64,000 bases of DNA from Candidatus Hydrothermarchaeota archaeon (GCA_046760505.1 JBHIEG010000006.1:9212-73211); one strand, 5' to 3'. Numbered from the stretch's first letter, positions 14,170 to 50,689 are shown. Notes: generated by a model from the sequence alone, not told the origin. Numbers and translations are program-made.

Positions 14170-14815
14170 TCATGTGAAACTTTCCAGCAAGATGTATTGG
14201 ACTTTCCCCCTTAACTATATCCATGCCTCTTTTTGACCTACATGGATAGTACTGAGTGTATAATCCGGCAAGTCTTGGTGCCTGACTTACATCTTTTCCC
14301 ACTAAATTTTCAGCTACGAACCATGATGCCCCACATGGAGATCCTTTAATCACTGTTATTTCTTTGATGGTATCATCTTCTAACTTTATCTTGTACTTTG
14401 GGAAGCCAAATTCCTTTGCGAATCTATCGTATTCTTTTATTCCTTTGGGAACGAGACTGCAGCATGTAAGAGGTACTATTATGCTAAGGTCTTTCCTCTT
14501 ATTTTTAAGGTAGAGCGCGGATTCATCTTCCTTTGGTATCAAAAATGTTTTAACTCCCTGTTTTGATCCGATGTCTACTATGTATGATGTAAGGTCAGGG
14601 TGTAGAGAATAGGTGAAAACCATGTCCACATCTTTGAAGTAATCGGGAAAATCCTCAGGAAAATATTCCTCTGGATGCTCTATAAAGGAGGGAACTTCTT
14701 TGGGAAGTGAGAACTTTTTAACAACCGAGACATTTCTTCCATATTTATTTATGGTCTCTTCAACTCTTTCTCCGTACTTGCCACGCAAAATAAGAAGTAT
14801 TTTTAATTTATCCAC
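14120..14815 (-). CDS. Conserved archaeal Cys-containing protein, DUF166-like
   Basis: About 231 aa with LTCCSL, GSPCGASWF and YPCRS motifs. GTG 14815 lies 6 nt after GAGGT and overlaps the cooC stop. Family assignment is from memory only. Confidence 0.4.
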   Translation of the reverse strand: MDKLKILLILRGKYGERVEETINKYGRNVSVVKKFSLPKEVPSFIEHPEEYFPEDFPDYFKDVDMVFTYSLHPDLTSYIVDIGSKQGVKTFLIPKEDESALYLKNKRKDLSIIVPLTCCSLVPKGIKEYDRFAKEFGFPKYKIKLEDDTIKEITVIKGSPCGASWFVAENLVGKDVSQAPRLAGLYTQYYPCRSKRGMDIVKGESPIHLAGKFHMNAIEKAIKEAIEKNDN

Positions 14816-15554
14816 CAATAGACCTCAGTATAGCCTTTATCGACTCAACTGAGATGGAATTTTTATTTAGATCGTATGGAGACTTTCCTTGGATATCAGC
14901 ATTTACAATGTTCTCATCGTAGGGAATCGATCCTAGGAGAGGCATATCAATAGAACTTTTTATGAATTCGATCTGCTCATCGTGAGTTATTTTGTTTGCT
15001 ACCGCTGCAATATTTTTTATTCCGATCCCTTTGGACAATTCTTTTATCCTGTTTGCCGTGTCTATGGATCTTTGTCCAGGCTCAACTATCACTACCATCA
15101 AATCAACATTTTCAGCTGTTCTTCTTCCCAGATGCTCTATGCCTGCTTCCATGTCCAGGATCACCCAGTCTTCCTCCTTCAGTATTAGATGTCTAAGTAA
15201 TGCGCGTAGAAATGTACTTTCTGGACATACACACCCTGATCCACCGGTTTCAACCGTACCCATAACAAGAAGCCTTATTTTGTTCTTTTTTATGCTAAAA
15301 TTATCCAAGACATCATTTACCTTTGGATTCAGCCTGTATAGACCAGATCCCATCACGGTTCTTTCTTCTATCAACTCTTTTAGCTTTGAGACCGGGGTTG
15401 GTAATTCTGAGATTCCAAGGCTTGTGTGCAAGTTCATATCCGGATCTGCATCTATTGCTATTACATTCTTTCCTTCTTCGTCAAGTATTCTTGCAAGTAT
15501 TCCGGAAAAGGTTGTTTTGCCGGTCCCCCCTTTACCGGCGACTGCAATTTTCAA
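14808..15554 (-). CDS. cooC: CooC-type Ni-insertion ATPase (second copy)
   Basis: KIAVAGKGGTGKTT P-loop and the CxC motif (GSGCVCPE) typical of CooC. TTG start after AGGTGATC. Confidence 0.85.
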   Translation of the reverse strand: MKIAVAGKGGTGKTTFSGILARILDEEGKNVIAIDADPDMNLHTSLGISELPTPVSKLKELIEERTVMGSGLYRLNPKVNDVLDNFSIKKNKIRLLVMGTVETGGSGCVCPESTFLRALLRHLILKEEDWVILDMEAGIEHLGRRTAENVDLMVVIVEPGQRSIDTANRIKELSKGIGIKNIAAVANKITHDEQIEFIKSSIDMPLLGSIPYDENIVNADIQGKSPYDLNKNSISVESIKAILRSIGG

Positions 15555-15582
15555 AAGATCACCTAAATTTAATAAAAAAAGG

Positions 15583-16983
15583 TTACTTCAGTTCCAAAGT
15601 CGATACAAGCTTTGGTATTCCGCTAGAATCCCTTGGACCTACCACTACTTTCCAACCGGATATGTCTTCAAGTTCTCCCGTTATACGCGCGGCCATTCCA
15701 GGTATTACAATAGTCCTGTGTTTTACCTTCTCCTCTATTTTTGTCTCGTCCATTGTCTCCTTAACCCTTGACGCATTTAATTGCCCCCCTGCAACCGCAG
15801 ATTCTACGCCAATTCCCTCTGTATCTACAACAAGGAGCCAACAGTCTATGTTTCCAGATTCTATATCACTTGCTACCGTGTAGTAAGTGAGCGCAAAGTT
15901 CGTGGTGAACATGACCGGAGACATATCTGTTGGCGATCCTATTTCCTTCAATCCAGGTTCTACGGATACGGGTCTTCTGGGGTCTGTGTATAGGTTCTCC
16001 CTAAGCGTTATCAACGGTATGATCATCCAAGGCTCGATGCAATGGAGTATCATGAGATCACTAAAGTTTACTAAACAAATATTAGATACAATAGCCTCTA
16101 AATTTGCTTTTGTAATATCATCTCCTTCCGTTAACCATGCAACTGCTGGAACTGTCATTAGTGGAAATCCTAAGTCTTTTTGTCCTTCCTCTATGGCTGC
16201 TCTTCTTAGCATTACCAGATTGTTTACCGTGGTGCTTATTCCTTCTCCTTGAGGGTATGTTCCGGGATCCAATACGATTTCTTCAATTCCCATTGCTAGT
16301 AAGGCTCTCGTAATAGATCTCATTAATTCAAGGTCATTTGGAGCGAATACCGCCAAAGGCACGTTGTATTTTAGCGCTAACTTGCCGACTTCCTCCCAAT
16401 TTTCCCTTGTTGCAGCGTATATCAAAGGCCTTCTATCCTTAACAACTTCTAAGCCCGCTTCTAAGATTTTGGGATCGAATGAACAGAGTATTAGCGGTAT
16501 TTTCACATTATCTGCAACTGTTTTCACTGCCTTCTTGAATTTTTCTGCATCTTTGCTCACGCTTCTTATGGCAACCATTTCTAACTTCAATATCATCCCT
16601 ATGTATTCCTTTGTAAAGTCCTGAGCAAACTTGGAACGCTTTATTATCTCATCTTCTTTCATTTCATCCGTAACTTCTATTGCTATGGCTGTTTTGTTAT
16701 AATATGTTAATTCATGTCTGTAGAGTACTTCTTCTCCTCCTATGAGAACCTGATTATCACCAACTCCTACTCTCACTAACGAAACAAGAGGTGCAAGGTA
16801 ATCCTTTAGTTTCTCAAGTTTTTCCTTATATTTTGGCTCCTTCATGTATGGACAGTCTTCTATATCCTTTGTGCGTTCAATCAATTGGGCTGCGAATGCC
16901 ATACATGTGTTGAATCCGCAATCTCCACAGTTTGTTTGAGGAAGAAACTGATATGCTTCCAGAGGGCTTTTTACCTTAACCAT
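15583..16983 (-). CDS. cdhE: Acetyl-CoA decarbonylase/synthase gamma subunit (corrinoid Fe-S protein, large)
   Basis: N-terminal [4Fe-4S] motif NCGDCGFNTCMAFA. 466 aa. AGGAGGT plus 7 nt before the ATG. Confidence 0.9.
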   Translation of the reverse strand: MVKVKSPLEAYQFLPQTNCGDCGFNTCMAFAAQLIERTKDIEDCPYMKEPKYKEKLEKLKDYLAPLVSLVRVGVGDNQVLIGGEEVLYRHELTYYNKTAIAIEVTDEMKEDEIIKRSKFAQDFTKEYIGMILKLEMVAIRSVSKDAEKFKKAVKTVADNVKIPLILCSFDPKILEAGLEVVKDRRPLIYAATRENWEEVGKLALKYNVPLAVFAPNDLELMRSITRALLAMGIEEIVLDPGTYPQGEGISTTVNNLVMLRRAAIEEGQKDLGFPLMTVPAVAWLTEGDDITKANLEAIVSNICLVNFSDLMILHCIEPWMIIPLITLRENLYTDPRRPVSVEPGLKEIGSPTDMSPVMFTTNFALTYYTVASDIESGNIDCWLLVVDTEGIGVESAVAGGQLNASRVKETMDETKIEEKVKHRTIVIPGMAARITGELEDISGWKVVVGPRDSSGIPKLVSTLELK

Positions 16984-16995
16984 CCTTGATACCTC

Positions 16996-18294
16996 CTAAA
17001 ACCGGGCTGATACCCAGTCTGTTATCTCTGGATATTCCTTCTCCAGCATTCCTGCTAGTTGAAGGCAGGTCTCTTTCAGGGTTTTGACTGCAAACGGATG
17101 CATCATCATGAATAGATCCCCCCCTGCCAAAGCGAGGGTCAGTCCTGTTACAACTTCCCACAGAGGACCTCTCAGTTCTCTTGGCCCCCATTCCTCTCCT
17201 TCAACGGGAGATTGTTTCATCCAAGCCTCTCTTGCTCCCCAGGCATTTGTAGTTCCGCTGGACATCGGGAAGTTTAGGTCTCTATCCCCCTTCAAACCGC
17301 TTATTCTTATCCTTTGCATGTTTGTAAAGGCATAATCCAATCCATAACCCAGAGCTGCTGTAGTAGGGTCCATAATTATCTGGTCTCTTGGAACTCCCTC
17401 TCTAAACAAGTATCTGTTTAGCGTTTTTTGATTGTTTATATCTAGCTGCGTCCATGATAAAACGACGTGCCCATAGTCTATTGCTGCCTTGGCAACTCTC
17501 TTATAATCTAGATTTAGGCTTGCAGATGCTAATAGAACTCTTTCTCCTTCCGCAACTTTTGCTGCTTCTTCTAAAACTTCTGGATCTTTCTCCGGAACTC
17601 CAGATCCCCCTACCACGATTGGCACCTTAACCGCTTGTAGTATATCTTCAACAACCTTTGCAGCCTCTTTAGAAGGCGTATCTTTTATAGCGGGATCTGT
17701 GGAGATAAGGTGTATCGTTACCATATCGGCGCCAAATTCCTTTACACACTTCTTTGCCCAATCAGATGGGTCTTCCATCACATCCTCTATGGTTGCCTTA
17801 ACAGGTCCTGCTAAGGGAATGGGCATATCAAAAACGTCTACTGTTACTACCGGAACGTTAGGATTTTTTGCCTCGAAGTTGTAAAATGGCAGAGTTTTAT
17901 GACCTCCTACCTTAATTACATAGTCTCTTGTTCCGCCATCTGATTTTGTCGCGCCAAGTGTTATCTCTTCTATCTCCTGTAGCCATTTTACCTTTGGAAT
18001 CTCAAATGTGGCTGGCTCTAAGGTAACCTTAGGTACTTCAGGAACGGCTTCAGGAGCAGTAGGAACGGTTGGAATGGTTATACTTACTCCTGTGAGTTCC
18101 TGCAAACTTTGAGCCAGTAGTTGTGCGTAATAAGCTACTTTATAGAGTGCAGGTGGAATCTGCATCTGGCCTGGCTCAATTTCAATGACCATCTCGCCAT
18201 CTTCTCCTAGTTCTATGGTCACATCTTCTAGTTCTTCAATATTAAATGTCTCTAAGATTTTTAAAAGCTCTGAGAGGTCGATTTTTTCCTCCAA
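16996..18294 (-). CDS. cdhD: Acetyl-CoA decarbonylase/synthase delta subunit (corrinoid protein, small)
   Basis: 432 aa with a TIM-barrel-like pattern. Position between cooC and cdhE. TTG start 7 nt after GAGGAGGT. Confidence 0.85.
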   Translation of the reverse strand: MEEKIDLSELLKILETFNIEELEDVTIELGEDGEMVIEIEPGQMQIPPALYKVAYYAQLLAQSLQELTGVSITIPTVPTAPEAVPEVPKVTLEPATFEIPKVKWLQEIEEITLGATKSDGGTRDYVIKVGGHKTLPFYNFEAKNPNVPVVTVDVFDMPIPLAGPVKATIEDVMEDPSDWAKKCVKEFGADMVTIHLISTDPAIKDTPSKEAAKVVEDILQAVKVPIVVGGSGVPEKDPEVLEEAAKVAEGERVLLASASLNLDYKRVAKAAIDYGHVVLSWTQLDINNQKTLNRYLFREGVPRDQIIMDPTTAALGYGLDYAFTNMQRIRISGLKGDRDLNFPMSSGTTNAWGAREAWMKQSPVEGEEWGPRELRGPLWEVVTGLTLALAGGDLFMMMHPFAVKTLKETCLQLAGMLEKEYPEITDWVSARF

Positions 18295-19059
18295 CTAATA
18301 TACCTCCTCAAGTTTATTCAGTATATCTTTAATCGCCAACATAGAGGGTGAATCTTCAGGCAATTCAACCACAGGTTTTCCTTCAAGATCATAAAGGGAA
18401 ACATTCTTGTCTTCCGGTATTACTCCAATAACCTCCAATCCAAGTTCATTTGCTTTTTTTCTTAAACTCTCTTCCATCCCCGGCAGTACTCGATTTAGAA
18501 TTACCGCCATATAATCAAACTTTATTTCAAGTTCTTTCGCTAGCTCTTTAATTCTTTCTGCTGTTTTTAAGCCTTTAACTGTAGGATCTGTAACTACCAG
18601 CAGGATATCAACGTCTCTTGTTGTTCTTCTACTCATGTGTTCGAGTCCAGCTTCAGTATCTATTACAGTGATATCGTAGTGTCTGGCGAATTTGTCTATT
18701 ATGTCTCTCAGCATATGATTTACAAGACAATAGCATCCAGGACCTTCTGGTCTTCCCATTACCAAGAGATCAAATTTTGGCCCCTCAACAACTATCTCCA
18801 TTATTTTTCCTTCTAGTAGGACGTCTTTTGAAGTTCCTGGTGGAAGCGATCGAAAGTCATCGGAGATTTTTTCTCTTATATCACCCACAGTTTTCTCAAA
18901 TTCAATACCCAATGCCTCTGGCAAGTTGGAGTCAGCGTCGGCATCAACTGCCAAGATAGATTTGGAATTTTTACTCAGTAAATGAATTAAACTAGCCGAA
19001 ACGAATGTTTTTCCGGTACCTCCTTTACCAGAGACGGCTATTACTGTACCTTTCTTCAA
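18295..19059 (-). CDS. cooC: CooC-type Ni-insertion ATPase (first copy, between cdhC and cdhD)
   Basis: VIAVSGKGGTGKTF P-loop and GPGCYC motif. TTG start after GGGGA plus 6 nt. Confidence 0.85.
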   Translation of the reverse strand: MKKGTVIAVSGKGGTGKTFVSASLIHLLSKNSKSILAVDADADSNLPEALGIEFEKTVGDIREKISDDFRSLPPGTSKDVLLEGKIMEIVVEGPKFDLLVMGRPEGPGCYCLVNHMLRDIIDKFARHYDITVIDTEAGLEHMSRRTTRDVDILLVVTDPTVKGLKTAERIKELAKELEIKFDYMAVILNRVLPGMEESLRKKANELGLEVIGVIPEDKNVSLYDLEGKPVVELPEDSPSMLAIKDILNKLEEVY

Positions 19060-19087
19060 GATGTTTCCCCTGGAAATTTGAGAGACC

Positions 19088-20533
19088 TTACTTGGTCTCT
19101 CTCTTTACAATTACTTTGTCTATGTGTATTTTTGCGCCTTTCAGTACCAGTCTTATTGTTCCCCCTGCAATAGGCATTCCTGCTGGAACCGTTGGCATGC
19201 TCGGGGCTGTAACCTGCATTTCCGGCATTGGAGTTACCCCCGGTGTAGGAGTTGGAGGCGCCTCAGGTGCTGGAGCTTCTTCTGGAGGAACCTCTTCAGG
19301 AACTTCCTCTACCCAGGAAGCCACTACTGGATGACCTCTTTCCTTGAGGAATGCCTTTAGTTCCTCTATATCCTTCACATCTTCTTCTGTAGCGATCTTA
19401 TCTACAAGATCTTCAGGTATCGCATCCTGTACTCTGTCTTTAAGAGCTTTTGGGAGCCAAACCGTTTTACTCCAACCACCATCTGCCATAAGGAATTTTG
19501 GCGATCTGAAGTATTCTATTCCTATTCCTAGGAAGCCTGGAACCTGTTTTCCCCCTCCTGTTTGACCAGCCATCGTTGAGAAAGGCAGGCCATTTACGGT
19601 TACTCCCTTGAAGTCTCTGTGAACCCAGCCGAATCCATCTACTTCTGGTATGTAGAAACCTATAACTTCAAAACATCCGCAAGATGTATGAGGATATTGC
19701 ATAAAGCTGTGGAGCCATATTCTATCATATTCTCCTCCGGAAAGGGTTACAGCGGCCTCATTTACCCCGGAGTATTCACCTACTTCTGCATTCAGTAGCT
19801 CTCCTTTTGGTATTACCTTCATAGGTCCTTCTGGATCTACTTTGGCAGCGGCTCTTCCGTCAAACCATGTCATGGCTCCGCAAAGAGAAACCCTGTCTGG
19901 CGTAATCACGCATACATTCGTTGGAGCAAAAGATTGACAGAGAGTACATCCATAAAATGTATCCACGTCCTCCTCGCTTAACTCCCTAGTTCTTGCGTCC
20001 CTCTCCTCATATGCCTTCATGGCTTCTGGCATTCTCTTTTCCACTTCATCCTTGTCGGTAATGTATATGGCTTCTATCTTTTCTATGAAGGGCAACTCTT
20101 GTTTAAACAGAAACATTGTGGCTTGAGCAATCTGTTTTAAGGACTTGAGTCCTTTTTTGATCGCGTCTTTACTTATCCTTATCCAGATATCATATCTTTG
20201 GTTTAAATGCATGTAACCTTGGATGAAGTTCTGAAACTCGTGATTTCTTCTCTCAATTACGGATTCAAGGTCTTTTTCAACCATTTCCCCTGCTACCTTG
20301 TATATCATGGCAAAAGGATATCTTCCGCCTTCTTCCATATCTTCCAAATCTGGTCCGATTAGGGTAACCCTGTAGTCTTCTATCTCATCCATCGAAGCAG
20401 CTTGAACAAGTTCAAAACCTATTCCTTTAGGACCTGCTAATTCCACGTACATGTCTTCCCCTCTGATTCTCTCCCCCTCGTACATAGGGCTCATATCAAA
20501 CGGGAAAACGTCCGCAGTAATTTCTTCAGCCAT
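19088..20533 (-). CDS. cdhC: Acetyl-CoA decarbonylase/synthase beta subunit (A-cluster acetyl-CoA synthase)
   Basis: CTLCQSFAPTNVCVITPDR and HTSCGCFE A-cluster ligands. Pro/Glu-rich C-terminal extension. Confidence 0.95.
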   Translation of the reverse strand: MAEEITADVFPFDMSPMYEGERIRGEDMYVELAGPKGIGFELVQAASMDEIEDYRVTLIGPDLEDMEEGGRYPFAMIYKVAGEMVEKDLESVIERRNHEFQNFIQGYMHLNQRYDIWIRISKDAIKKGLKSLKQIAQATMFLFKQELPFIEKIEAIYITDKDEVEKRMPEAMKAYEERDARTRELSEEDVDTFYGCTLCQSFAPTNVCVITPDRVSLCGAMTWFDGRAAAKVDPEGPMKVIPKGELLNAEVGEYSGVNEAAVTLSGGEYDRIWLHSFMQYPHTSCGCFEVIGFYIPEVDGFGWVHRDFKGVTVNGLPFSTMAGQTGGGKQVPGFLGIGIEYFRSPKFLMADGGWSKTVWLPKALKDRVQDAIPEDLVDKIATEEDVKDIEELKAFLKERGHPVVASWVEEVPEEVPPEEAPAPEAPPTPTPGVTPMPEMQVTAPSMPTVPAGMPIAGGTIRLVLKGAKIHIDKVIVKRETK

Positions 20534-20545
20534 TTTTACGCCTCC

Positions 20546-21073
20546 TTAGAGGTTTTCTATCACCTCTTTTAATTCTTTTTCCCAATCTTCATCGCTCATA
20601 TTGCCGAAAGACATCGTAGCGTTGGGATGGTAGTACTTATCAAGGGTTAAGGTTCTCATCTTCCCGAAGTGTTTTAGACACTGCAACATGAGCGATTGTT
20701 GATAGTATAACCCCCCCACGTAGGCTACTACGTCGTATGGTCCGTTGCCATCTAAACCTTGCCATTCATCATCTCTGAGTAAATTTGTTATTTCTAGAAT
20801 TCCCATAGATTTTGCATTCACTCCCCTATCCTTAAATTCCCTTACCATGTGAGCAGTTGCTATGATTGGAATGTTTTTTTTCTTCGCTATTTCGATTATG
20901 TAATCTATCAGTTTCTTTTCATTCAATTCGTACAGTATTTGAGATCCTGCTACGATCAACGGTCTTTTTGCCTTGGAAAGTAATTTGCCTAGGGTCTTTC
21001 CATCCGTGGCTCTCGCTGTAACCGGACCTACTATGTTTGCTCTCTCCCAAGGGGTAGCATCTATTTTTGCCAT
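20546..21073 (-). CDS. cdhB: Acetyl-CoA decarbonylase/synthase epsilon subunit
   Basis: 175 aa directly downstream of cdhA. GGAGGGTG plus 6 nt before the ATG. Confidence 0.85.
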   Translation of the reverse strand: MAKIDATPWERANIVGPVTARATDGKTLGKLLSKAKRPLIVAGSQILYELNEKKLIDYIIEIAKKKNIPIIATAHMVREFKDRGVNAKSMGILEITNLLRDDEWQGLDGNGPYDVVAYVGGLYYQQSLMLQCLKHFGKMRTLTLDKYYHPNATMSFGNMSDEDWEKELKEVIENL

Positions 21074-21076
21074 ATG

Positions 21077-23452
21077 TTACACCCTCCTCTTTCTTATTAA
21101 TCTCTCCAGGTTCGTGGGATCGAATCTTGGATCATATGCTCTTACCTGTCCGCCTTTAATTTTCTTATCTTTTACTTCGAATCCATGTTCTTTCTCCAAA
21201 ACTTCCAGTAACTCTGATCTTCTTGCAATAGGAAGATCTGTTTCGCTTCTTACGAAGAGATACCAATCCTCTGGATACTCTCCGAAGTACTTCTTTGATA
21301 GATCTAGGTAATGAGTTAATTTTATCGATCTTCCCGGAGCAGTATCGTTTGGTCTCATTACCATGCGAGCTGTTTGCACTATTGCCTCTTCTTTGGTCTC
21401 TGCTGTATAAATCAAATGCTCAGGTCCGGGCTCGAAGTAATGGAAGGAGCCATCTTTTGCATCTATGATCTGCCATTCCTCTTTTTTGTCCTTTCTTCCA
21501 AGATACATTCTCCTGTATTTAGATCCGTGGGGACCAACTATAACTGGAACTCCAAGTCTGTTACATCCGGTAGCAATAGATGCTGCCTTTTGAGAATATG
21601 CTCCCCATGCTACTCCTACCGCGCCAACTCTGTTGAGTATATAATCCGCTATCTCCTCGAAGTTTGCTCTAAGGTTTCTCATCGCAAATATGTTTGCTAC
21701 CTTTATGGCTGCTCCAGCAATATGGGCGTTAGATACGCAAGAGCCCGTATTACATATATTTCCTGCATCAAAAGCTCCGGGATATCTCTCCCATATGGTC
21801 TTTCCTTCCTCATCCTTATAGAATGACACATCCATTGCCGCGCATCCTGAGGTTACAACAATGTAATTTCTAGATGCAAATTCGTTGGCCATTTCAAAAA
21901 GATCTTTTCTTGATCCAGGATAGTTTGAGCAACCCACGTAGGCTATTACCCCGGGTATTGTTCCTAAGACAATGGGAGCGCCAACGTTTCTTATCTCCAC
22001 GTCTGAGACTGCTCCTCTTCCGGATCTCATGACAGATTTTTCAGTCTTTATCTGCGCCTCTGACGCTGCCTCGATTAAGTTCAACGGCTCAATACCCTGA
22101 GGACATTCTATAGCGCATTTTCCACATCCTATACATCTTTCATGCAATTCCACAAGTAATGAGAAATCTCCTTTAGATGCTGTCTCGTTTGCTGTGTGAA
22201 TAGGTAAGTTACTGGGACAAACACGCCTACATTTCTCACAGGAAGTACAAGTTGATGCGATTTCCTGAACTTTGCTCAGATCAGGGATTATTTTAAATTT
22301 CTTCCTCTTTGGAGCAATTGCTTGAGCAACCTTGACTGCCACTTCCCCTACCTTATAGGGGTCTGATATGAATGCTCCGGGCAACTTCCCCTCGACAAGA
22401 TCTTTCACAATTCCATCCGCCGGATCATTGGTCCTATTTGGCAATCCATAAAGGATCTTATCCATGGTTGTGATAACCGGTGCCTTAATCTTCTGGGCTT
22501 CTTGTAAAATATCTGCCCTCACGCATTGTTCGTCCACAACTATAACGTCTGGAACGCCAGATCTTATGAATTTAAGTTGTTGAGATATCGGTCCTATTAC
22601 CTTTGCTTTTGTGTAGTACCTTGTCATGTCATGAGCAGTGCAACATATCGCACAAACTTCGACCTCGTCTTCTAATCCGTGATCCACCATGTAGTCGATG
22701 ATTCCTACGCCAGGCAGTACGTTATGTCCTATACCTAGGATTACGGGTTTTTCTTTATCTATTGCTCCCATTCCTATCTCTACCAAAGGCGCATCGGGAT
22801 CTGCCTTTGGGAATCCTAGACAAGATATCTGAGCGACATCTGCCACTTCCATGGCGAGAAGATCAAGCATACCCGTGTGGAGTGCTTTAGACTCAAAATC
22901 TAAGTAAGATCCTTCCTGCCCCGTATGTACTGCAGCAAGGCAGTGAGTTATCTGTTCTTCAACGTAGTCCAAAACCTCCTCCAAATCACCTAATGTAGTT
23001 GGCCTCATTCCCACGATTAATCTTGTCAGAGGAGCCTCTACATTTATGACATCCTTACCAACATCTATCGGATGATCTCGTCCAAACCTATCTATCAATT
23101 GATGAAGCATGTGTCTTGTGTGAGCAGTATGGGCCGCACAACCTATTAAGCAAGCAGCAAGAACTATTCTTCCTGTCTGATTTGAGATGTCTATTCCACA
23201 AGCTCCCCTTCTCTCTCCAGAAAGATCACATTTCCCCATAGTACACAAACAGCACATATCGCAGTACGGCGCATAGAAAGGATGGTATCTTCTCAGCAAG
23301 GTGAAATCCCAGTCTCTTAGATCTATTATGCTTGGTTTTGGCGTTGGACCCATTGGCTCTTCCCAAATTTCAGCTTCTTCTATGATCCTTCCTATGGTAA
23401 TGGTAACTCCTTCCAGACCTTCCACAGCGATCCTTTCTGGGTTTTTGGCCAT
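21077..23452 (-). CDS. cdhA: Acetyl-CoA decarbonylase/synthase alpha subunit (Ni-CODH)
   Basis: 791 aa. N-terminal Cys clusters (CDMCCLCTMGKCDL), inserted 2x[4Fe-4S] domain (CTSCEKCRRVCP, CIGCGKCAIECP) and C-cluster region. GGAGGT plus 6 nt before the ATG. Confidence 0.95.
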   Translation of the reverse strand: MAKNPERIAVEGLEGVTITIGRIIEEAEIWEEPMGPTPKPSIIDLRDWDFTLLRRYHPFYAPYCDMCCLCTMGKCDLSGERRGACGIDISNQTGRIVLAACLIGCAAHTAHTRHMLHQLIDRFGRDHPIDVGKDVINVEAPLTRLIVGMRPTTLGDLEEVLDYVEEQITHCLAAVHTGQEGSYLDFESKALHTGMLDLLAMEVADVAQISCLGFPKADPDAPLVEIGMGAIDKEKPVILGIGHNVLPGVGIIDYMVDHGLEDEVEVCAICCTAHDMTRYYTKAKVIGPISQQLKFIRSGVPDVIVVDEQCVRADILQEAQKIKAPVITTMDKILYGLPNRTNDPADGIVKDLVEGKLPGAFISDPYKVGEVAVKVAQAIAPKRKKFKIIPDLSKVQEIASTCTSCEKCRRVCPSNLPIHTANETASKGDFSLLVELHERCIGCGKCAIECPQGIEPLNLIEAASEAQIKTEKSVMRSGRGAVSDVEIRNVGAPIVLGTIPGVIAYVGCSNYPGSRKDLFEMANEFASRNYIVVTSGCAAMDVSFYKDEEGKTIWERYPGAFDAGNICNTGSCVSNAHIAGAAIKVANIFAMRNLRANFEEIADYILNRVGAVGVAWGAYSQKAASIATGCNRLGVPVIVGPHGSKYRRMYLGRKDKKEEWQIIDAKDGSFHYFEPGPEHLIYTAETKEEAIVQTARMVMRPNDTAPGRSIKLTHYLDLSKKYFGEYPEDWYLFVRSETDLPIARRSELLEVLEKEHGFEVKDKKIKGGQVRAYDPRFDPTNLERLIRKRRV

Positions 23453-23620
23453 AATCTTACCTCCTGATTTCTCTCTTTCCTGATTACTATCACCAGATAA
23501 TGAAGCATATATAAAGTTATCTTGCCTACTTAATGAGATACTCGGCCATGAATTTTATATTACTTAGTTATTTTTCTCTGAGAAGCCGGATCGCAGAATT
23601 TTTTCGTTTTAAGGAGTTCC

Positions 23621-32269: not shown

Positions 32270-32295
32270 GGTATCCGATTCAACTATTTGAGAGT

Positions 32296-32368
32296 AGCCC
32301 GGTAGGGTAGTGGTCAATCCTGCCGGCCTTTGGAGCCGGCGACGGCGGTTCGAACCCGCCCCGGGCTA
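32296..32368 (+). tRNA. tRNA-Gln (anticodon UUG), no intron, no encoded CCA
   Basis: Acceptor AGCCCGG/CCGGGCT, anticodon stem CCGGC/GCCGG with loop CTTTGGA, T-arm GGCGG-TTCGAAC-CCGCC, discriminator A. Confidence 0.9.
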
Positions 32369-32426
32369 TTAGATTCAGCCCTCTTATATATCTACTCCAT
32401 GACCGGTAAAAAACAATTATCCTCTT

Positions 32427-33137
32427 TTATTTACCTAGAAACTTCATAGAATCCAAATCAACAACCTTTGCGCGAACATAATAATCAGAAAATCTCAAAT
32501 ATTTTTTTCCTCGAAAAATTAGTAGTCCTGCTAGCAGGTCTAATGGTAGCAAAAATACCTTTCCTATATTTCTTAGCGAACTCTCGACTAAATTGAGTTT
32601 TCTGCCATTCTCCTTTAGTACCTTAATTCCTATTAGGTACTTGCCAATTGTTTGACCGTTGTAGGTTTCCATTAGTACCAGAACTATGAGATCAAAAGCG
32701 ACCAAGCCTTGAGCGTAGATTATAATCTCGATAATATTTATCCCGTGCTTAAGAATTGGAACCCACATACCTACAAGTACTATGAGTGATACCGGGAGAA
32801 CCACCAGTATCATAAAATCTATAATTGTGGCTGCAAATCTGTTTAAAATAGATGTTTGCGGCTCGATTATAACTTGCTCATCGCTGATTTTTTTAATTTC
32901 TTTTATTACGTTGTAAGCAATCTTTCCTTTGTCCGTCAATATGTACGTTCCTTGTCCTGTTGTCTTGCACAGTCCCCTCATTTTCCTAAGGTGGAAATTG
33001 AGTTGTCCCGTATCTATTTTTAGGGTGCTCAACATCTCAGTATAGGATAGTTCGGTGTTCTCGTGGAGCAACTCGATTATACTTCTTCTAATTGGATGAG
33101 AAAGGGTTTTGAATATATCATCTTCCTCCTTAGCCAC
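32427..33137 (-). CDS. ArsR-type winged-helix regulator fused to an RDD-family membrane domain
   Basis: IFKTLSHPIRRSIIELL...LSYTEMLSTLKIDTGQLNFHLRKM followed by TM segments (RFAATIIDFMILVV...). GTG 33137 follows GAGGTGA. The track start at 33251 is unlikely. Confidence 0.65.
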   Translation of the reverse strand: MAKEEDDIFKTLSHPIRRSIIELLHENTELSYTEMLSTLKIDTGQLNFHLRKMRGLCKTTGQGTYILTDKGKIAYNVIKEIKKISDEQVIIEPQTSILNRFAATIIDFMILVVLPVSLIVLVGMWVPILKHGINIIEIIIYAQGLVAFDLIVLVLMETYNGQTIGKYLIGIKVLKENGRKLNLVESSLRNIGKVFLLPLDLLAGLLIFRGKKYLRFSDYYVRAKVVDLDSMKFLGK

Positions 33138-33398
33138 GATTTCACCTCTATTTTGACAACAATCTATTTTAATCAAGTTATTGATACCAAGAAATTTTTC
33201 ATAAGAGTATTTTCCGTTTATTATGATATAAAAATAGTATTGTTTATTCAAAAGTGTGTGAGAAACTCAAGGTTTCCTTGAAAAATATTCCTCATTCGTT
33301 GGGAAACATTATTCTCAAAAAACCTTATAACCAAGTTATATGTTATAGTTTAAAATATAATAGTGCCGAAGAAAACCTGAAAAAAGATGGGGGAGAAA

Positions 33399-34547
33399 AT
33401 GAAGGCAACCAAATACCTACTGTTTTTGGCTCTACTGACATTACTTCCTTTAGCAGTAGCCTCTCCAGAGGAATATGTTGGCGCTGAGAAATGTAAGATG
33501 TGTCACAAAGATGTCTATGAAGAATGGAAAGAATCTGGCCATCCATACATCATAAGAACAGCGGAAGAAGCCAAAGAAGCAGGACTTCCTTTACCGCCTG
33601 GCTACACATGGGATGATATATCTCATGTTATTGGAGGTTACAAGTGGAAGGCCCGGTATTTAGATAAAAACGGATACTTCATCACAAAAACAAAAGCAGG
33701 TAAGAATGGATCCAACCAATACAATCTAGAAACCAAAACATGGTCTGATTACCATCCAGGAGAAATCAAAAAATATAACTGCGGAAAGTGCCACACCACG
33801 GGATACTCTCCAGAAGGACATATGCACGGTATGGAAGGAATAGTTGGCACATGGGTTTATCATGGAGTTCAGTGCGAGGTGTGTCATGGACCGGGAAGCG
33901 AGCACATCGCAAAAGGAGGAGATAAAACCTTAATTATCAAAGATACATCATCGGCCCTCTGTGGAAAATGCCATATCAGAGGAGACAAGAATACAATTCC
34001 AGCAAAAGGAGGATTCATAAGACACCATGAGCAGTACAATGAATTATTAGCGAGTCCCAAAAAGGACTTTGAATGCGTAGCGTGTCATGATCCGCATAAG
34101 AAATCGGAGCTCTCTATAAAAGTTGGTTGTGCTTCCTGTCATGCAGAGGAAGGCAATGAGTTCAACGGAAGCCTCATGCAAAAAGCAGGCGTAAAATGCA
34201 TAGACTGTCACATGGCTGAGGCTGCAAAATCTGCTATCGCTCGCTCAACGTTCCAAGGGGACGTTAAAACTCATCTCTTCAAAATAAACATTGATCCTGA
34301 CGCAAAGATGTTTACAGAAGACGGAAAGTTTGCGTTAGGATATTTAACCGTGGAATACGCTTGCTTGAAGTGCCATACTGACAAGGACAAGAGTTGGGCA
34401 TTAAAATACGCTGAAGGCATTCATGCATTAAAAGAAGTTCCTAAGCCACCTGCTCCGCCTGCAGCCAAGCCGACTTGCGGACCCACGTTGCTGCTGCTAT
34501 TGGCTTCGCTAACAGCGTTGCTAATTGGACTAAAAAGAAGGAAATAA
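33399..34547 (+). CDS. Octaheme c-type cytochrome, secreted, with CGP-type C-terminal anchor
   Basis: Signal peptide MKATKYLLFLALLTLLPLAVA. Eight CxxCH motifs (CKMCH, CGKCH, CEVCH, CGKCH, CVACH, CASCH, CIDCH, CLKCH). C-terminus PPAPPAAKPTCGPTLLLLLASLTALLIGLKRRK. Confidence 0.85.
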   Translation: MKATKYLLFLALLTLLPLAVASPEEYVGAEKCKMCHKDVYEEWKESGHPYIIRTAEEAKEAGLPLPPGYTWDDISHVIGGYKWKARYLDKNGYFITKTKAGKNGSNQYNLETKTWSDYHPGEIKKYNCGKCHTTGYSPEGHMHGMEGIVGTWVYHGVQCEVCHGPGSEHIAKGGDKTLIIKDTSSALCGKCHIRGDKNTIPAKGGFIRHHEQYNELLASPKKDFECVACHDPHKKSELSIKVGCASCHAEEGNEFNGSLMQKAGVKCIDCHMAEAAKSAIARSTFQGDVKTHLFKINIDPDAKMFTEDGKFALGYLTVEYACLKCHTDKDKSWALKYAEGIHALKEVPKPPAPPAAKPTCGPTLLLLLASLTALLIGLKRRK

Positions 34548-35496: not shown

Positions 35497-36543
35497 CTAA
35501 TCAATTTCTATTATTTCATATTCATCAGAGCCAAGATTATGATTCTTAGCGGCTTGTAATTGATAGTCCGAGTGAGTCCAATTGAATATGGACCCAAACT
35601 TCTCTCCGGATATTCCCTGAGCCATAGAATTCGGTAAACAGGGACTTTCATTTACAAAGTCTATGGAAGCCTTTTCTATCGCAAGTATATCTTCAGAGGC
35701 TAAAATACCGACGTCAGGCACGATTGGATTATCTGAATAAGGACAGCAATCGCAGTGGGGTGTTATATCGAGTAAAAAATTGAAGAAGACGAAGTTTTCT
35801 TTTCCTACAAGTTTAAAAACTGCTTTTGCACAGTCTATAATTCTTTCTGATAGATCTTTTCCGGTTATCCATTTTAATACTATCGCATTTTCCCTACATA
35901 CTTCAAAGCATCCGTTGCACTTAAGGCACAATGAATCAACTACCTTGTATTCTTGAATGGCATTCCCAGGACATATATCCACGCATTTATCGCATCTTGT
36001 ACATAGATTCTCATCAATTACAGGGAGTTCGTATAGATGGATATCGAACTTAGATGGTTTTGCAATACATCCAACACCTATGTTTTTTAGTGCTCCTCCA
36101 AAGGCTCCTCTGAAATGTCCCTTGAAGTGCGCTAGAGATATTACCTTGTCTACTTCATCAAAGATTTTGGCGACATATACTTTCTTTAGGTGAAAACCAT
36201 CCACTTCAACCTCTATGTAATCAAATCCCTTCAATCCATCCGCTATTATTATGGGTGCGCTTAAAGTTTGAGATGTATATCCGTTTTCCTCAGCAATCTT
36301 CATCCTTCCTAGGGCAAAACTTCTGTCATCTGTAAAGCCTAATCCTGTTGTCTCCGTTACAAAAGGTTCACCGCCCTTTTCTTTCACAATTTGTGCAATC
36401 TTTCTGATATATACGGATCTAAGGGGTTTTGTGGTTCCGTGCACGCCGAAGTGTGTCTTTAAAGCGACAACATCTCCTCTTTCGATAAAGTCTAATATTC
36501 CACTTTTTCTTATTAGCCTCTCTAACTTATTTACCATGCTCAA
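35497..36543 (-). CDS. DUF362-family protein with inserted 2x[4Fe-4S] ferredoxin domain
   Basis: CTRCDKCVDICPGNAI and CLKCNGCFEVCRENAI. N-terminal GDVVALKTHFG pattern. Confidence 0.75.
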   Translation of the reverse strand: MSMVNKLERLIRKSGILDFIERGDVVALKTHFGVHGTTKPLRSVYIRKIAQIVKEKGGEPFVTETTGLGFTDDRSFALGRMKIAEENGYTSQTLSAPIIIADGLKGFDYIEVEVDGFHLKKVYVAKIFDEVDKVISLAHFKGHFRGAFGGALKNIGVGCIAKPSKFDIHLYELPVIDENLCTRCDKCVDICPGNAIQEYKVVDSLCLKCNGCFEVCRENAIVLKWITGKDLSERIIDCAKAVFKLVGKENFVFFNFLLDITPHCDCCPYSDNPIVPDVGILASEDILAIEKASIDFVNESPCLPNSMAQGISGEKFGSIFNWTHSDYQLQAAKNHNLGSDEYEIIEID

Positions 36544-36611
36544 ATGCGGCTGATACCATCTTTCAGGCGTTTCTACGGGAGCACGAGAGTTTGCAAAGAA
36601 GACTTTGGCTC

Positions 36612-37733
36612 CTATCTTTTTCCCCTCCTTACGTGTAGAAATGTGAGTATAAATGCAATCAAGAATATAAATGAAATACTGATCAGCATCAGATAAAACT
36701 TCTTTTTTTCCCTCTCTCTTTCTTTTTCCTCTTGAATTCTCTTCTCCTCTACTTCAGATATTTTTTCCTCGAGTTTTTTCTGTTCTTCTTTAAATTTTTG
36801 GATTTCTTCTTTGGTTACTTTCTGCAGGTAAAGCAATGCTGATGTTTTTAGTTTCGTAGCATTTTTCTCTATTTTATTTGCAATTGATTTGGCTTTAAGC
36901 GAATAATTTAAGGCTAAGTCGTATTTTTTAGATTCCTTTAATTCCTCTGCCTTCATTATGAGCTCTTCCGTGGTCCAGTAACTTTCGTTTAATTCTTCAA
37001 GTGTTTTATAGTAAGTGCTAGAGTTGGTTAGGTTTCTATGAATGGTTGAAATTACAGATCGAGCCTCTTCAAGGCTGATTCTTGCCTCTTCTAGGCTATC
37101 TTTAGCCTCTTTAATTCTTTTGTTGGAGAGTTCAAGAAACTTGCCATATTCTATGTAGAATTCAAGTTTATCTAAGGGGGTAACCTTTTCATCATAAAAG
37201 TAAAGCGATAGCCTACTGTCCTTTATTTCCACCATATCGGGCTCTGGTTTGACCCTACCAATTTGCATATTTTCAGGGATCGTTACCTTGTAAGAAACTC
37301 TGAGTATGTATAAAGGGGAGAATATACTGTCCCTTATGATATAACCCCTTTCTGTCTTGGCTATAAAATCAGATCTTTTATAGTCGATTTCTATGGTCTT
37401 AAATTTTTTTGGCGGAATTGAGGTAATTCTAACGGAGATGCAATTGCCTGTTTCATCCTTGGTGAACGTAACATTGAGTGGAGAGTATCTGCCTGTTAAA
37501 TTGTGCACGTATGCCGATGCATTGTACATGGAACCCATACAGTAGATGAAAGGCGGCGCTAGATGTGTGTAGTTACCGTAAGAATAATTTCCAGTGTTGA
37601 TATAATTCCAGAATTGATTCACATTGGCCTCATCAGGTTCTGCTATATCGATTACATAAACGAAGTTATCTACTATCAATTGAGCGGTTGATACCGATAT
37701 AGCGAACAACAATGCCAAGAACTTAAACCTCAT
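36612..37733 (-). CDS. Surface protein: signal peptide, sequon-rich domain, long coiled coil, C-terminal TM anchor
   Basis: MRFKFLALLFAISVSTAQ, about ten N-x-S/T sequons, Glu/Lys coiled coil, C-terminus FYLMLISISFIFLIAFILTFLHVRRGKR. Confidence 0.5.
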   Translation of the reverse strand: MRFKFLALLFAISVSTAQLIVDNFVYVIDIAEPDEANVNQFWNYINTGNYSYGNYTHLAPPFIYCMGSMYNASAYVHNLTGRYSPLNVTFTKDETGNCISVRITSIPPKKFKTIEIDYKRSDFIAKTERGYIIRDSIFSPLYILRVSYKVTIPENMQIGRVKPEPDMVEIKDSRLSLYFYDEKVTPLDKLEFYIEYGKFLELSNKRIKEAKDSLEEARISLEEARSVISTIHRNLTNSSTYYKTLEELNESYWTTEELIMKAEELKESKKYDLALNYSLKAKSIANKIEKNATKLKTSALLYLQKVTKEEIQKFKEEQKKLEEKISEVEEKRIQEEKEREREKKKFYLMLISISFIFLIAFILTFLHVRRGKR

Positions 37734-37837
37734 AAAACCATCTTCTTTTTCTCATACAACATATTTTTTATCCTAGTGCAAAAGATTTTTATATCCTTTT
37801 GCCAATCGCACTCTTCAGAGATTGAGGGGGAATAAAA

Positions 37838-39469
37838 ATGCAAACAACTGAGGGACAACCTATCTTGATATTACCAGAGGGTTCTGAAAGGTATATGGGA
37901 AGAGAAGCTCAAAGGATGAATATTCTTGCAGCCAGAATTATAGCAGAGGCAATAAGAACTACGTTGGGTCCAAAAGGTATGGACAAAATGTTGGTAGACT
38001 CTACGGGAGACATAACGATAACAAACGATGGAGCCACGATTTTAAAAGAAATAGATGTAGAACATCCAGTTGCGAAGATGATAATCGAAGTTGCCGAGAC
38101 CATGGATAATGAAGTCGGGGACGGTACAACAAGCGCGGTGATACTCACTGGGGAGTTACTTAAAAAAACCGAAGAATTGTTAAACCTTGGCATTCATCCC
38201 GCAACCATTGCAAAGGGATTCAGAATGGCATCTGAAAAAGCAAGTGAAATACTCGATGAAGTATCAAAAACTATATCGATAGAAGACGTTGATGTACTCA
38301 GAAACATCGTCATGACATCAATGAGTGGCAGATTGGCAGATGAAATAAAGGAAGACCTTTCAAAAATAATTATTGATGCTATAAAGACGATTTCAGAAGA
38401 AAAAGATGGGAAATACAAGGTAGATTTGGATAATATCAAGATTCAAAAATTTGAGAGCAGTAGTATATCTGAAACCAAACTCGTAGATGGTATCGTACTT
38501 GATAAAAAGAAAGCCCATCCCATGATGCCGAAATTGGTTAGGGATGCTAAAATTGCCCTTATAAGGTCTAGAATGAAGGTTAGAGAAACCGAAATGAAGG
38601 CCAAGTTTAGAATAACTGATCCAAAAGAGCTTAAAAGATTCTCGGATGAAGAACGCAACATTTTGATGAGCATGTTAAGTAAGATAAAGGAATCTGGAGC
38701 AAACGTCGTCTTATGCAAAAGAGACATAGATGAAAACTTCCAAGACCTTCTCGCGAGAGAGGGCATTTTTGCTGTAGAGAGAGTTCCAACTTCAGATATA
38801 AAGAGACTTATCCTTGCTACGGGTGCAGAACTTGTTACAAATTTGGAAGATTTATCTAAAGATAATTTAGGACATGCAGACCTAGTTAGAGAAGAAAAAA
38901 TTGGAGAAAAAGAAATTGTATTCATAGAAGGGTGCAGAAATCCAAAGGCGCTAACAATACTGGTAAGGGGCAGCACGGGACATATCGTAGACGAAATAGA
39001 GAGAGATGTGAGCAATGGACTGCACGGAGTAAAGGTTTCCATCGAAGACGGAGGCGTTGTTCCAGGTGGGGGCTCTATAGAAGTTGCAATCTCAAGTCAA
39101 CTCAGAAATTTTGCCAAGAAGATAGGAGGTAGGGAGCAGTTAGCCATCAATTCATTCGCCGAGGCACTTGAAATTATACCCAAAACCTTAGCCGAGAACG
39201 CGGGACTGGATTCTGTGGATGTACTTCTAAGGTTGAAAGCAACCCAGGAGAAGGGGAAAATTAACTACGGGATCGACGTGTTCACAGGCGAAATAAAGGA
39301 CATGTTCGATGAAAATGTACTAGAGCCAAAAAGGGTTAAGTTGCAGGCAATTAAAACCGCAACCGATACCTCAATCATGATATTGAGGATAGATGACGTA
39401 ATAGCCATAGCCCCCATAGAGATAGAAGATACAGGATATCCTGGGCCTATGCCTGAAATGGAGTTGTAG
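37838..39469 (+). CDS. ths: Thermosome subunit (group II chaperonin)
   Basis: [29 protein letters not shown] and VPGGGS motifs. GGGGGA plus 6 nt before the ATG. TAG stop. Confidence 0.95.
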
Positions 39470-39480
39470 GGGGAAGTTAC

Positions 39481-39711
39481 ACGTTCCCTGCAAATAGATT
39501 AACTCGTTTTGAACGTGCGAGAATAATCGGAGCCAGAGCATTACAAATTTCAATGGGAGCACCGGTACTGATCGATATACCAGAAAATCTAGTAGATCCA
39601 CTTGAAATAGCAAAGCTTGAGTTCAAAAAGGGCGCCGTACCTCTAACCGTTAGGAGAAAGTTACCAGGAGGAGAGTACGTATTAGTAAAGATGACAGATC
39701 TGGCATTGTAA
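39481..39711 (+). CDS. rpoK: RNA polymerase subunit Rpo6/RpoK (absent from ORF track; no canonical start, proposed ACG start)
   Basis: In-frame translation ...[33 protein letters not shown]...[16 protein letters not shown]. The frame is closed by TGA at 39454-39456 and has no ATG/GTG/TTG before the conserved RFERAR motif. GGGGGA plus 6 nt precedes ACG 39481. Confidence 0.75.
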
Positions 39712-39719
39712 AAAAAGAC

Positions 39720-39974
39720 TTGAGTAAGGAAGAATCAAAACCATACATCGTAGAAACTTTTTCTTTGGAGGAAAGCGGTATATGCGACGAGTGCGGTCAT
39801 AAGGGAGTGGTCCTTTTTTGTACTCCTTGTGACAGATATTTATGTGAGGTCTGCTACCACAACCATTCTGTGAGCGATGAAGAAATGCACTGGAAATGGA
39901 AGAACAATACTATATGCTGGTCATCTAATGATGAACCTATTGAAAAGTTAAAAGAGGAAGAGAAAGAGGAATAA
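39720..39974 (+). CDS. Small zinc-finger protein with B-box-like Cys/His spacing and acidic tail
   Basis: CDEC-x8-CTPC-x4-CEVC-x3-H-x7-H. TTG start 8 nt after the rpoK stop with no SD. Ends 1 nt from the tfb stop. Confidence 0.45.
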   Translation: MSKEESKPYIVETFSLEESGICDECGHKGVVLFCTPCDRYLCEVCYHNHSVSDEEMHWKWKNNTICWSSNDEPIEKLKEEEKEE

Positions 39975-39975
39975 C

Positions 39976-40878
39976 TTAGACCGCCACTTCTAAATCCAAT
40001 TTTTCAACGAGTTCCTTGTATCTGTTTCTTACAGTTACCTCTGATGTTCCAGCTACACCAGCAACTTCTTTCTGAGCTCTTCTCTCGCCTTGTAGAACGC
40101 TGGCAATGTATATTGCGGCTGCTGCAATTCCAGTTGGGTCTCTACCCGCAATCATTTCTTTTTCTATTGCCAGTTTTATTATGTCAATTGCCTTTGATTG
40201 AACTTCTCCAGAAAGACCTAATTCGCTGGAAAATCTGGCTACATATTCAATAGGACTTGTTGGCATGAGTTTTAATCCCAATTTCCTACCCAGTAGCCTA
40301 TAGATCTTACCGAGTCTCTTCTTATCTATTCTGGCTGCCTCAGCAATTTCACCCATGCTTCTCGGTACCTTATGCTGTCTGCATGCAGCGCAGAGAGCTG
40401 CTGCTACCACACTCTCTATGGATCTTCCTCTAATTAAATCACTTTTTACCGCTTTTCTGTAGGTTAGAGCAGCGGTTTCCTTTACATGTCTTGGAAGATT
40501 CAATTGCGATGAGATGGATTCCAGTTCTGAGAGGGCGAAAGCAAGATTTCTCTCCGTTGCATCGGATAATCTAACCCTCTGCTGCCACTTCCTCAACCTG
40601 TATAGTTTGGCTCTCTGACCTGGCGCGAGCTCGTTACCTCTTCCATCCTTTGTACTGAGGTCTATTGTAGTAGAGAGGCCTTTATCGTGCATCACATAGG
40701 TCATGGGGGCTCCTACTCTACTCTTAACAACCCATTGATGATGGTCGTGAGCCCTCCATTCTGGACCCGTATCAATCATATCGTGTTCAAGAACAAGCCC
40801 GCAGGATTTACAGATTAGTTCCCCTCTTTTCTCGTCCTTCGCTACCTTAGGACTCCCACACTCCGGGCATTTTTCCGT
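39976..40878 (-). CDS. tfb: Transcription initiation factor TFB (start unresolved: proposed ACG 40878, alternative ATG 40893 with in-frame TAG)
   Basis: Zn ribbon KCPECGS...[10 protein letters not shown]-reader, two cyclin repeats. The track ORF starts at Met 40779, after the ribbon. The ribbon is in frame and intact upstream. Confidence 0.9.
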
Positions 40879-40918
40879 TTTCTACACCTCCATCTTATTA
40901 TTAATGTGTTTGTACTTC

Positions 40919-40926
40919 TTTATAAA
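40919..40926 (-). promoter_or_regulatory. TATA box TTTATAAA of tfb
   Basis: 25 nt separate it from ATG 40893. A purine-rich BRE-like sequence lies upstream. Confidence 0.55.
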
Positions 40927-50217: not shown

Positions 50218-50631
50218 TTACTTTACTTCTGCAGAAGCCATTGCACCTTCTTTACATGTTACGTCTACGACATCACCTGATTGTAACGTGTATCCAGCAG
50301 TCGGCATCTTGCCTATTCTGCTAGCATTCAAAGTGTCGAATTTGTAAGTAAAATTCCCATTTACATAAAGCCTCACATCGCTTGCGTTGGCGCTTCCTGT
50401 ATTCATTACTTTAACGTAGTTTTTATTTTTCTTTGCCTCTAAGATGAGTAAGTTCACATCGAATTGCGCAGTGGCTCCGCTCACCTTAGCAGTTGTTCCC
50501 GTGGTAAAACTTGTCACCCAGACATAGGCTATTCCCGCTGCTACTACTGCTATAGCTATCAATAGGATTACTGCTATTACTGGCGAGACACCTTTCTCCT
50601 CCTTCCTTATCCCTTGGAACGTTTTTTTCAC
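50218..50631 (-). CDS. Archaeal type IV pilin, first gene of the pilin run (candidate major pilin)
   Basis: KKTFQGIRKEEKGVSPVIAVILLIAIAVVAAGIAYVWV. The start is ambiguous (GTG 50631 lies inside the SD, ACG 50622 lies at SD spacing). Confidence 0.75.
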   Translation of the reverse strand: MKKTFQGIRKEEKGVSPVIAVILLIAIAVVAAGIAYVWVTSFTTGTTAKVSGATAQFDVNLLILEAKKNKNYVKVMNTGSANASDVRLYVNGNFTYKFDTLNASRIGKMPTAGYTLQSGDVVDVTCKEGAMASAEVK

Positions 50632-50689
50632 CCCCAGTAAATATTCTATTTTAATCTGTTATAGTAGTACTCATATTTTATAAGCGTTT

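Follow-up and report, generated by a model that had tools for sequence, protein, structure and literature searches.

Reading frames of rpoK and tfb

Where does translation of an archaeal gene begin when no canonical start codon precedes its conserved reading frame? The question is raised twice within a 64,000-nt stretch of DNA from Candidatus Hydrothermarchaeota archaeon (GCA_046760505.1 JBHIEG010000006.1:9212-73211; hereafter the window), whose source is probably an uncultured, Hydrothermarchaeota-related archaeon. The genes concerned are rpoK, which encodes the RNA polymerase subunit Rpo6/RpoK and directly follows the thermosome (chaperonin) gene, and tfb, which encodes transcription factor B (TFB) on the opposite strand. 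Our reading of the sequence is that both genes start at an ACG codon by plain initiation directed by a Shine-Dalgarno (SD) sequence, to which we assign a probability of about 0.7; that the ACG is the codon where translation starts, by one route or another, appears more likely still.

The thermosome gene (37838-39469, + strand) starts with ATG and stops with TAG (39467-39469); it scores 718 bits with the NCBIfam thermosome models, and its last codons are CCT GAA ATG GAG TTG TAG. The rpoK frame is closed upstream by an in-frame TGA (39454-39456, + strand), after which it reads AAT GGA GTT GTA GGG GGA AGT TAC ACG TTC CCT GCA AAT AGA TTA ACT CGT TTT GAA CGT. Between this TGA and the ATG at 39553-39555, direct reading finds no ATG, GTG, TTG, ATT, ATC, ATA or CTG. 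The ninth codon after the TGA is ACG (39481-39483). No other codon from the TGA to the conserved core is a near-cognate of AUG, and this one lies only 11 nt from the thermosome stop. A coding sequence starting there (39481-39711, + strand) comprises 76 codons and a TAA. Its product is an RpoK: the NCBIfam equivalog model NF002208 matches with 101.4 bits (cut-off 57), aligning residues 5-60 with model positions 4-58 of 60, and Pfam RNA_pol_Rpb6 (PF01192) matches the ACG-started protein with 34.6 bits (cut-off 26). The first canonical in-frame start, the ATG at 39553-39555 (+ strand) inside the SMGAP motif, is the choice of the gene callers. It yields a 52-residue protein that lacks the invariant TRFE.ARIIGAR segment and has no Pfam match, and we judge that it is not the real start. 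The original prediction, made from this DNA alone, had held that rpoK lacks a canonical start and that beginning at the first ATG would delete conserved sequence; both statements stand, and the position it gave for that first Met, 39538-39540, is corrected here by 15 nt.

The same anomaly had been claimed for tfb, and reading of the minus strand bears this out. The proposed coding sequence (39976-40878, - strand) has 300 codons and a stop, counted from an ACG at 40878-40876. On that strand the leader reads GGAGGTG (40891-40885), TAG (40884-40882), AAA, ACG (40878-40876), GAA AAA TGC CCG GAG TGT GGG, so that the in-frame TAG and the codon for the first zinc-ribbon Cys are separated by four codons only, AAA ACG GAA AAA, and the ribbon is located upstream of the first ATG (40779). 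The protein is identified as TFB by Pfam Zn_Ribbon_TF (PF08271; residues 3-43, 64.7 bits), by two matches to PF00382 and by NCBIfam TFIIB (NF001658; 457 bits across residues 2-299), and the zinc-ribbon match depends on translation from the ACG. A TATA-box-like element, TTTATAAA (40919-40926, - strand), is positioned 40 nt upstream of the ACG. The surrounding promoter block, TTTATAAAGAAGTACAAACACATTAATAATAA, is identical in the second-species locus L004 described below and almost so at the locus of a tfb paralogue (L167). With a transcription start placed by general archaeal promoter geometry, the predicted 5' untranslated region would be ~16-18 nt long. The genetic code of the window is standard; its 66 genes end in TAA (34), TAG (17) or TGA (15).

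Alignment with the starts of relatives

The canonical starts of homologues fall on the two ACG codons and not elsewhere. In a protein alignment, the initial Met of seven RpoK homologues occupies the column of the Thr encoded by ACG. The aligned N-termini include MYPTNKLTRFE, MYPPKKLTRFE, MWPKDRLTRFE and MFPKKYTRFE; the codons that follow the ACG fit the N-terminal motif of these homologues, [FY]P.N[KR]L, and the N-terminus of the NF002208 model lies within about one residue of the ACG. For TFB, the best full-length match (P0121, labelled Candidatus Hydrothermarchaeota by NCBI) shows 85% identity and starts with MEVCPECGG. A gap-free alignment matches its promoter, SD and start to the tfb leader of the window and puts its ATG exactly over the ACG.

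The gene for P0121 comes from the same samples and has different genomic surroundings (loci L166-L169; for example, 5001-5903 of L167). The database contains neither a third thermosome nor a third rpoK from this clade, and P0121 is therefore most probably a paralogue belonging to the same organism. Its gene adjoins a histone gene, and a phage-type integrase gene and trehalose-synthesis genes are nearby. Because the Met and ATG codons of relatives align exactly on the ACGs, each ACG is, by this comparison, a single T-to-C change of an ancestral ATG that has since been retained.

Conservation in a second species

The rpoK ACG is present in six assemblies of two species (the window, L001 and L002; L003, L004 and L005) and the tfb ACG in three (the window, L001 and L004). 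L001 and L002, which come from other sequencing runs, encode exactly the same thermosome protein and are 100% identical to the window across the rpoK junction; the tfb start is likewise identical in one of these two contigs. Random error had been considered less likely from the start, and the finding of the ACG in independent runs, and again in a second species from other studies, strengthens that view: as far as assemblies can show, sequencing or assembly error is excluded.

The search for RpoK homologues returned a second truncated call of 52 residues, P0111, from the second species. There the locus is syntenic in three assemblies, with the order FTR1, DUF362, hypothetical gene, thermosome, rpoK, small open reading frame (ORF), tfb and polB. 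No other close relative was found among the 5.8 billion proteins of the database: after the thermosome of this species, at 82% identity, the best match drops to 57%. Scans of genome and metagenome contigs with the thermosome protein gave, among the matches listed, relatives of at most 56% identity and no new clade members.

Both ACGs are kept between the two species despite synonymous divergence (dS) of 0.8-1.2. The dS and the ratio of non-synonymous to synonymous divergence (dN/dS) are 0.81 and 0.11 for rpoK, 1.19 and 0.015 for tfb, and 1.16 and 0.09 for the thermosome gene. Over rpoK codons 1-24, from the ACG to the first ATG, there are 9 synonymous changes versus 1 non-synonymous change, and over the 35 codons of the tfb zinc ribbon 12.5 versus 5.5. 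The codons that are read only from the ACG start are thus, judged by these substitution counts, under strong purifying selection. The 16 nt at the tfb start, GGAGGTGTAGAAAACG, are identical in the second species. The tfb ATG picked by the gene callers in the window (40779-40781, - strand) corresponds to ATA in the second species, whose own call starts later and yields 242 residues. In each of the two genomes, automatic annotation shortens rpoK and tfb in a different way.

Ribosome-binding sites and chance

Both ACGs lie at the organism's normal distance from a ribosome-binding site. Of the 49 window genes that have an SD run of 4 nt or more, 25 show an aligned spacing of 7-8 nt, the modal value. 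The SD-like sequence of rpoK, AGGGGGA (39468-39474, + strand), ends 6-7 nt upstream of the ACG; its AGGGGG, with one mismatch to the consensus, has an aligned spacing of 7. The thermosome ribosome-binding site (37825-37831) has the same sequence and spacing. The likeness that had been noted between the two starts is therefore real: GGGGGA (39469-39474), AGTTAC and ACG in rpoK match GGGGGA (37826-37831), ATAAAA and ATG (37838) in the thermosome gene. In the second species the rpoK SD is GGGGGAGGT. The tfb gene has a perfect SD, GGAGGTG (40885-40891, - strand), with an aligned spacing of 8 nt to the ACG, and this heptamer occurs nowhere else in the window when both strands are scanned.

Chance is an unlikely source of two such codons, as had been argued previously. 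ACG is the rarest Thr codon of the window (8.2 per 1000). The probability that it occurs anywhere in the 15 allowed codons of rpoK and the 4 of tfb is 0.117 x 0.033, or ~0.004, and that it occurs exactly at both Met-homologous codons is ~7e-5. Counting the codons that follow SD 5-mers across the 64-kb window had no power to discriminate, since purine runs that resemble an SD are frequent within genes.

Further candidates for non-canonical starts in the window

A third gene of the window, encoding a DUF362/ferredoxin (4Fe-4S) protein (35497-36615, - strand), has ATA (36615-36613) at the position of the orthologue's ATG. The ATA overlaps the TAG of the upstream gene (ATAG, 4 nt), where the relative has an ATGA overlap (L004 2015, L173 8730). 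An SD, AAGGAGGGG, lies upstream of the ATA, and the relative has the same SD. The gene caller starts this gene 24 codons late, at the first TTG; these 24 codons are conserved in protein and carry many synonymous changes. Table 11 lists ATA as a rare start. Comparison of the starts of 19 orthologous gene pairs showed that all are canonical and mostly identical, with the exception of DUF362. Near-cognate starts thus amount to 3 of ~66 window genes, a rate that may be inflated as the window was picked for its anomalies. The DUF362 ATA suggests that such starts may be tolerated generally.

A pilin-like gene (archaeal type IV, Pfam Pilin_N; 50218-50658, - strand) contains GGGGGTG, AAAAAA and an ACG (50620-50622) in the SD-to-ACG geometry of tfb, and also an alternative GTG (50629-50631) inside the SD; it is a possible, ambiguous fourth case. 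Pfam searches with stop-to-stop translations of ten ORFs that have long stretches before their called starts, together with inspection of 1075-2109, revealed no further truncated genes.

Proposed initiation at ACG

The original prediction had left two possibilities side by side, genuine ACG initiation and editing of ACG to AUG. The alignment with relatives' Met and ATG codons, the ACGs of the second species and the purifying selection support this pair, and within it we favour initiation at the ACG itself. The SD would set the small ribosomal subunit at the usual distance of this genome from the ACG, and the initiator Met-tRNA (anticodon CAU) would pair with the ACG with a mismatch at the middle position. 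Both proteins would then begin with Met, TFB as (M)EKCPECGS. Searches for tRNA genes in the window and related loci detected tRNA-Gln only and no initiator tRNA; Rfam likewise detected only that tRNA.

A near-cognate start would presumably be inefficient and would hold translation low, which may tune expression. The thermosome gene and rpoK are probably co-transcribed: the 11 nt between them leave no room for a promoter or terminator, so rpoK would share the thermosome mRNA, probably among the most abundant in the cell. The cell presumably needs far less of an RNA polymerase subunit than of the chaperonin, and a start with an efficiency of a few percent or below would bring the two into a sensible ratio. 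For comparison, E. coli initiates at ACG with roughly 0.1-1% of the efficiency of AUG, and the product carries an N-terminal Met (bioRxiv 10.1101/063800). Ribosomes that end at the thermosome TAG may add some reinitiation at rpoK. Because no frame upstream of tfb is conserved, its ACG, if used, must be capable of de novo initiation; this copy would coexist with the paralogue that keeps ATG.

Several points weigh against initiation at ACG. The SD of rpoK in the window (AGGGGGA) is imperfect; the second-species rpoK has an in-frame TTG at codon 7 (TTA in the window), a possible alternative start; the clade is known from two species only; and retention of the third base of ACG in both genes has a chance probability of ~0.2 at this divergence. 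Reviews give AUG, GUG and UUG as the only archaeal start codons (PMC4705826; PMC7531240), and Sulfolobus aIF1 discriminates against non-canonical codons (PMC4705826). If ACG were as weak here as in E. coli, a stoichiometric polymerase subunit would need a very abundant mRNA.

Alternative explanations

Termination-reinitiation would have ribosomes from a nearby TAG restart at the closest acceptable codon, the identity of which would be of minor importance; as the main route we consider it rather unlikely. The stops meant are the thermosome TAG, the DUF362 ATAG and, for tfb, the end of a mini-frame ATG GAG GTG TAG or GTG TAG, 3 nt before the ACG, and all three non-canonical starts do lie between -4 and +11 nt from a TAG (DUF362 at -4, rpoK at +11). 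Coupling in Haloferax volcanii works at overlaps and keeps 40-60% efficiency at 13-14 nt (PMC10666635), distances that the rpoK and DUF362 spacings fit. A hairpin predicted at 39464-39493 (+ strand) and also in the second species (L004 ~4916-4937), with the ACG near the loop, would pair the rpoK SD (GGGGG) with codons 2-3 (UUCCC). A terminating ribosome would open it, and rpoK translation could in this way be tied to translation of the thermosome gene to its end. Compared with shuffled sequence, however, the hairpin shows no gain in folding energy (z = -0.9 and +0.5). Folding of the tfb initiation region produced nothing. The tfb gene, moreover, has no upstream gene, the ATG of its mini-frame is TGG in the second species, which leaves a GTG inside the SD, and its perfect, uniquely placed SD points to ordinary de novo initiation. 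Reinitiation is in any case still a use of ACG as start and differs only in how the ribosome arrives. Editing retains the ACG in the genome alone: site-specific C-to-U change of the mRNA would turn it into AUG, as in plant organelles. A conserved genomic ACG at an ATG position is the signature of start-creating editing sites in chloroplasts, and here the genomic ACG is conserved and lies exactly at relatives' ATG. We nevertheless regard editing as improbable. Archaeal mRNAs are not known to undergo C-to-U editing, and literature searches turned up no archaeal precedent; the rpoK and tfb sites share no sequence context beyond the SD; and the ATA of DUF362 is beyond repair by C-to-U. The protein database contains no M-FPANRL RpoK of the lineage, a weak point given that transcriptomes may be absent there. 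Such editing would be the first of protein-coding RNA in Archaea. A related reading, in which near-cognate starts of transcription genes form a regulon that follows the stringency set by aIF1, is similarly improbable.

The remaining explanations do without the ACG. That the real starts are downstream canonical codons, namely ATG 39553 (52-residue RpoK), ATG 40779 (267-residue TFB) or the TTG of the second-species rpoK, is what the gene callers' output (P0001, P0111, P0122) and that in-frame TTG at codon 7 would favour, but it is very improbable. The short RpoK lacks the invariant TRFE.ARIIGAR and any Pfam match, and the short TFB lacks the zinc ribbon. The second species has ATA in place of the tfb ATG, and the window has TTA in place of the rpoK TTG. 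The codons upstream of these starts, moreover, are under strong purifying selection and match the N-terminal motif of homologues. An artefact, or a recent inactivation by loss of the start codon, is scarcely credible, even though a single T-to-C transition separates each ACG from ATG and the data are metagenome assemblies. The ACGs are identical in independent runs and recur in a second species from other studies, dN/dS is 0.015-0.11 over a dS of ~1, and the homologue search gave no second rpoK of the clade. Recoding deserves equally little credence. The window ATG GAG GTG TAG shares the frame of tfb, and MEV is also the N-terminus of the paralogue, which could indicate read-through of the TAG, but the second species has TGG instead of the upstream ATG, the DNA alignment places the paralogue MEV on ACG GAA AAA and not on the upstream triplets, and TAG ends 17 of the 66 genes under a standard code. 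Read-through of the pyrrolysine type was rejected along with the general case, on the absence of the upstream ATG in the second species and the general use of TAG as a stop. For rpoK, a shift from the thermosome frame would be -1 at the TTG or ATG before the stop, and there is no slippery site; a frameshift into rpoK was rejected on this ground and because the +1 frame ends quickly.

Neighbouring genes

Directly 3' of rpoK lies a small conserved ORF (39720-39974, + strand) with a TTG start and 84 codons for amino acids; its counterpart in the relative (L173 11893-12159) encodes 88 residues and starts with ATG. The product matches the B-box zinc finger PF00643 with 27.3 bits (cut-off 24.1), a domain described mostly in eukaryotes. 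Comparison of window 32295-34547 with L173 6533-6660 shows ~2.1 kb of extra sequence between tRNA-Gln and the FTR1 gene, an indel beside a tRNA gene. The extra segment contains ORFs at 32427-33266 (- strand) and 33381-34547 (+ strand), the latter with a CxxCH haem-binding motif. Farther away, ~14800-23554 (- strand) includes a Prismane/CO-dehydrogenase family gene (21077-23452) and CooC/MinD-type P-loop ATPase genes (14808-15554 and 18295-19059). By its gene content this cluster looks like a carbon monoxide dehydrogenase (CODH)/acetyl-CoA synthase locus, which would agree with the carboxydotrophy suggested for Hydrothermarchaeota (PMC6775978).

Significance and comparison with known systems

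If initiation at ACG is true, two apparently indispensable genes use it, the archaeal start-codon repertoire is wider than the three codons of textbooks and reviews, and a natural weak start codon would set protein ratios inside an operon, here between a chaperonin and a polymerase subunit. Automatic annotation would systematically truncate genes in this lineage, giving an RpoK of 52 residues without its core and a TFB of 242-267 residues without its zinc ribbon, and such truncation can distort completeness estimates and metabolic inferences for metagenome-assembled genomes of this kind. The rpoK and tfb starts also offer a concrete, cloneable case for the policing of the middle codon position by aIF1 and aIF2.

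Near-cognate ACG initiation occurs in eukaryotes and viruses, for example in VP2 of adeno-associated virus, and at low level in E. coli reporters, where an ACG likewise opens the reading frame. The eukaryotic and viral ACG starts are decoded as Met by the initiator tRNA and are deliberately weak, setting protein ratios. The present starts differ from them in that they are found in an archaeon, are guided by an SD and not by scanning, belong to chromosomal housekeeping genes and are conserved between species. We know of no native E. coli gene with an ACG start, a point on which no search was made. The near-cognate starts established in E. coli are AUA, AUC, AUU and CUG, and ACG is not among them (bioRxiv 10.1101/063800). 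No specific report of archaeal ACG starts came up in literature searches. In a ribosome-profiling study of Haloferax volcanii, ~30% of the putative alternative sites of initiation were near-cognate codons, and these were set aside as possible false positives (PMC7261190).

The rpoK and tfb starts resemble the AUU start of bacterial infC in being conserved non-canonical starts on information-processing genes. The infC gene, which encodes IF3, is essential, and its AUU is kept for regulation: IF3 itself discriminates against AUU, so that the gene is autoregulated. Feedback of this type does not apply here, as RpoK is a polymerase subunit and TFB a transcription factor, and neither is a translation fidelity factor. 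Plant chloroplasts and mitochondria, in which ACG is edited to AUG, share with this locus a genomic ACG at an ancestral ATG that is kept between species; their editing could not repair the ATA of DUF362, and we know of no archaeal editing machinery. Archaeal termination-reinitiation is similar in arrangement, with rpoK 11 nt after a stop and DUF362 in a 4-nt stop/start overlap. In the described cases, a canonical start overlaps the stop as ATGA or TGATG (Huber et al. 2019, PMC6728339; PMC10666635), unlike the non-canonical starts found here and unlike tfb, which has no upstream gene. Non-AUG initiation itself is well known; what would be new, as far as comparison of these genomes indicates, is its occurrence at ACG, in an archaeon, in conserved housekeeping genes and maintained across species.

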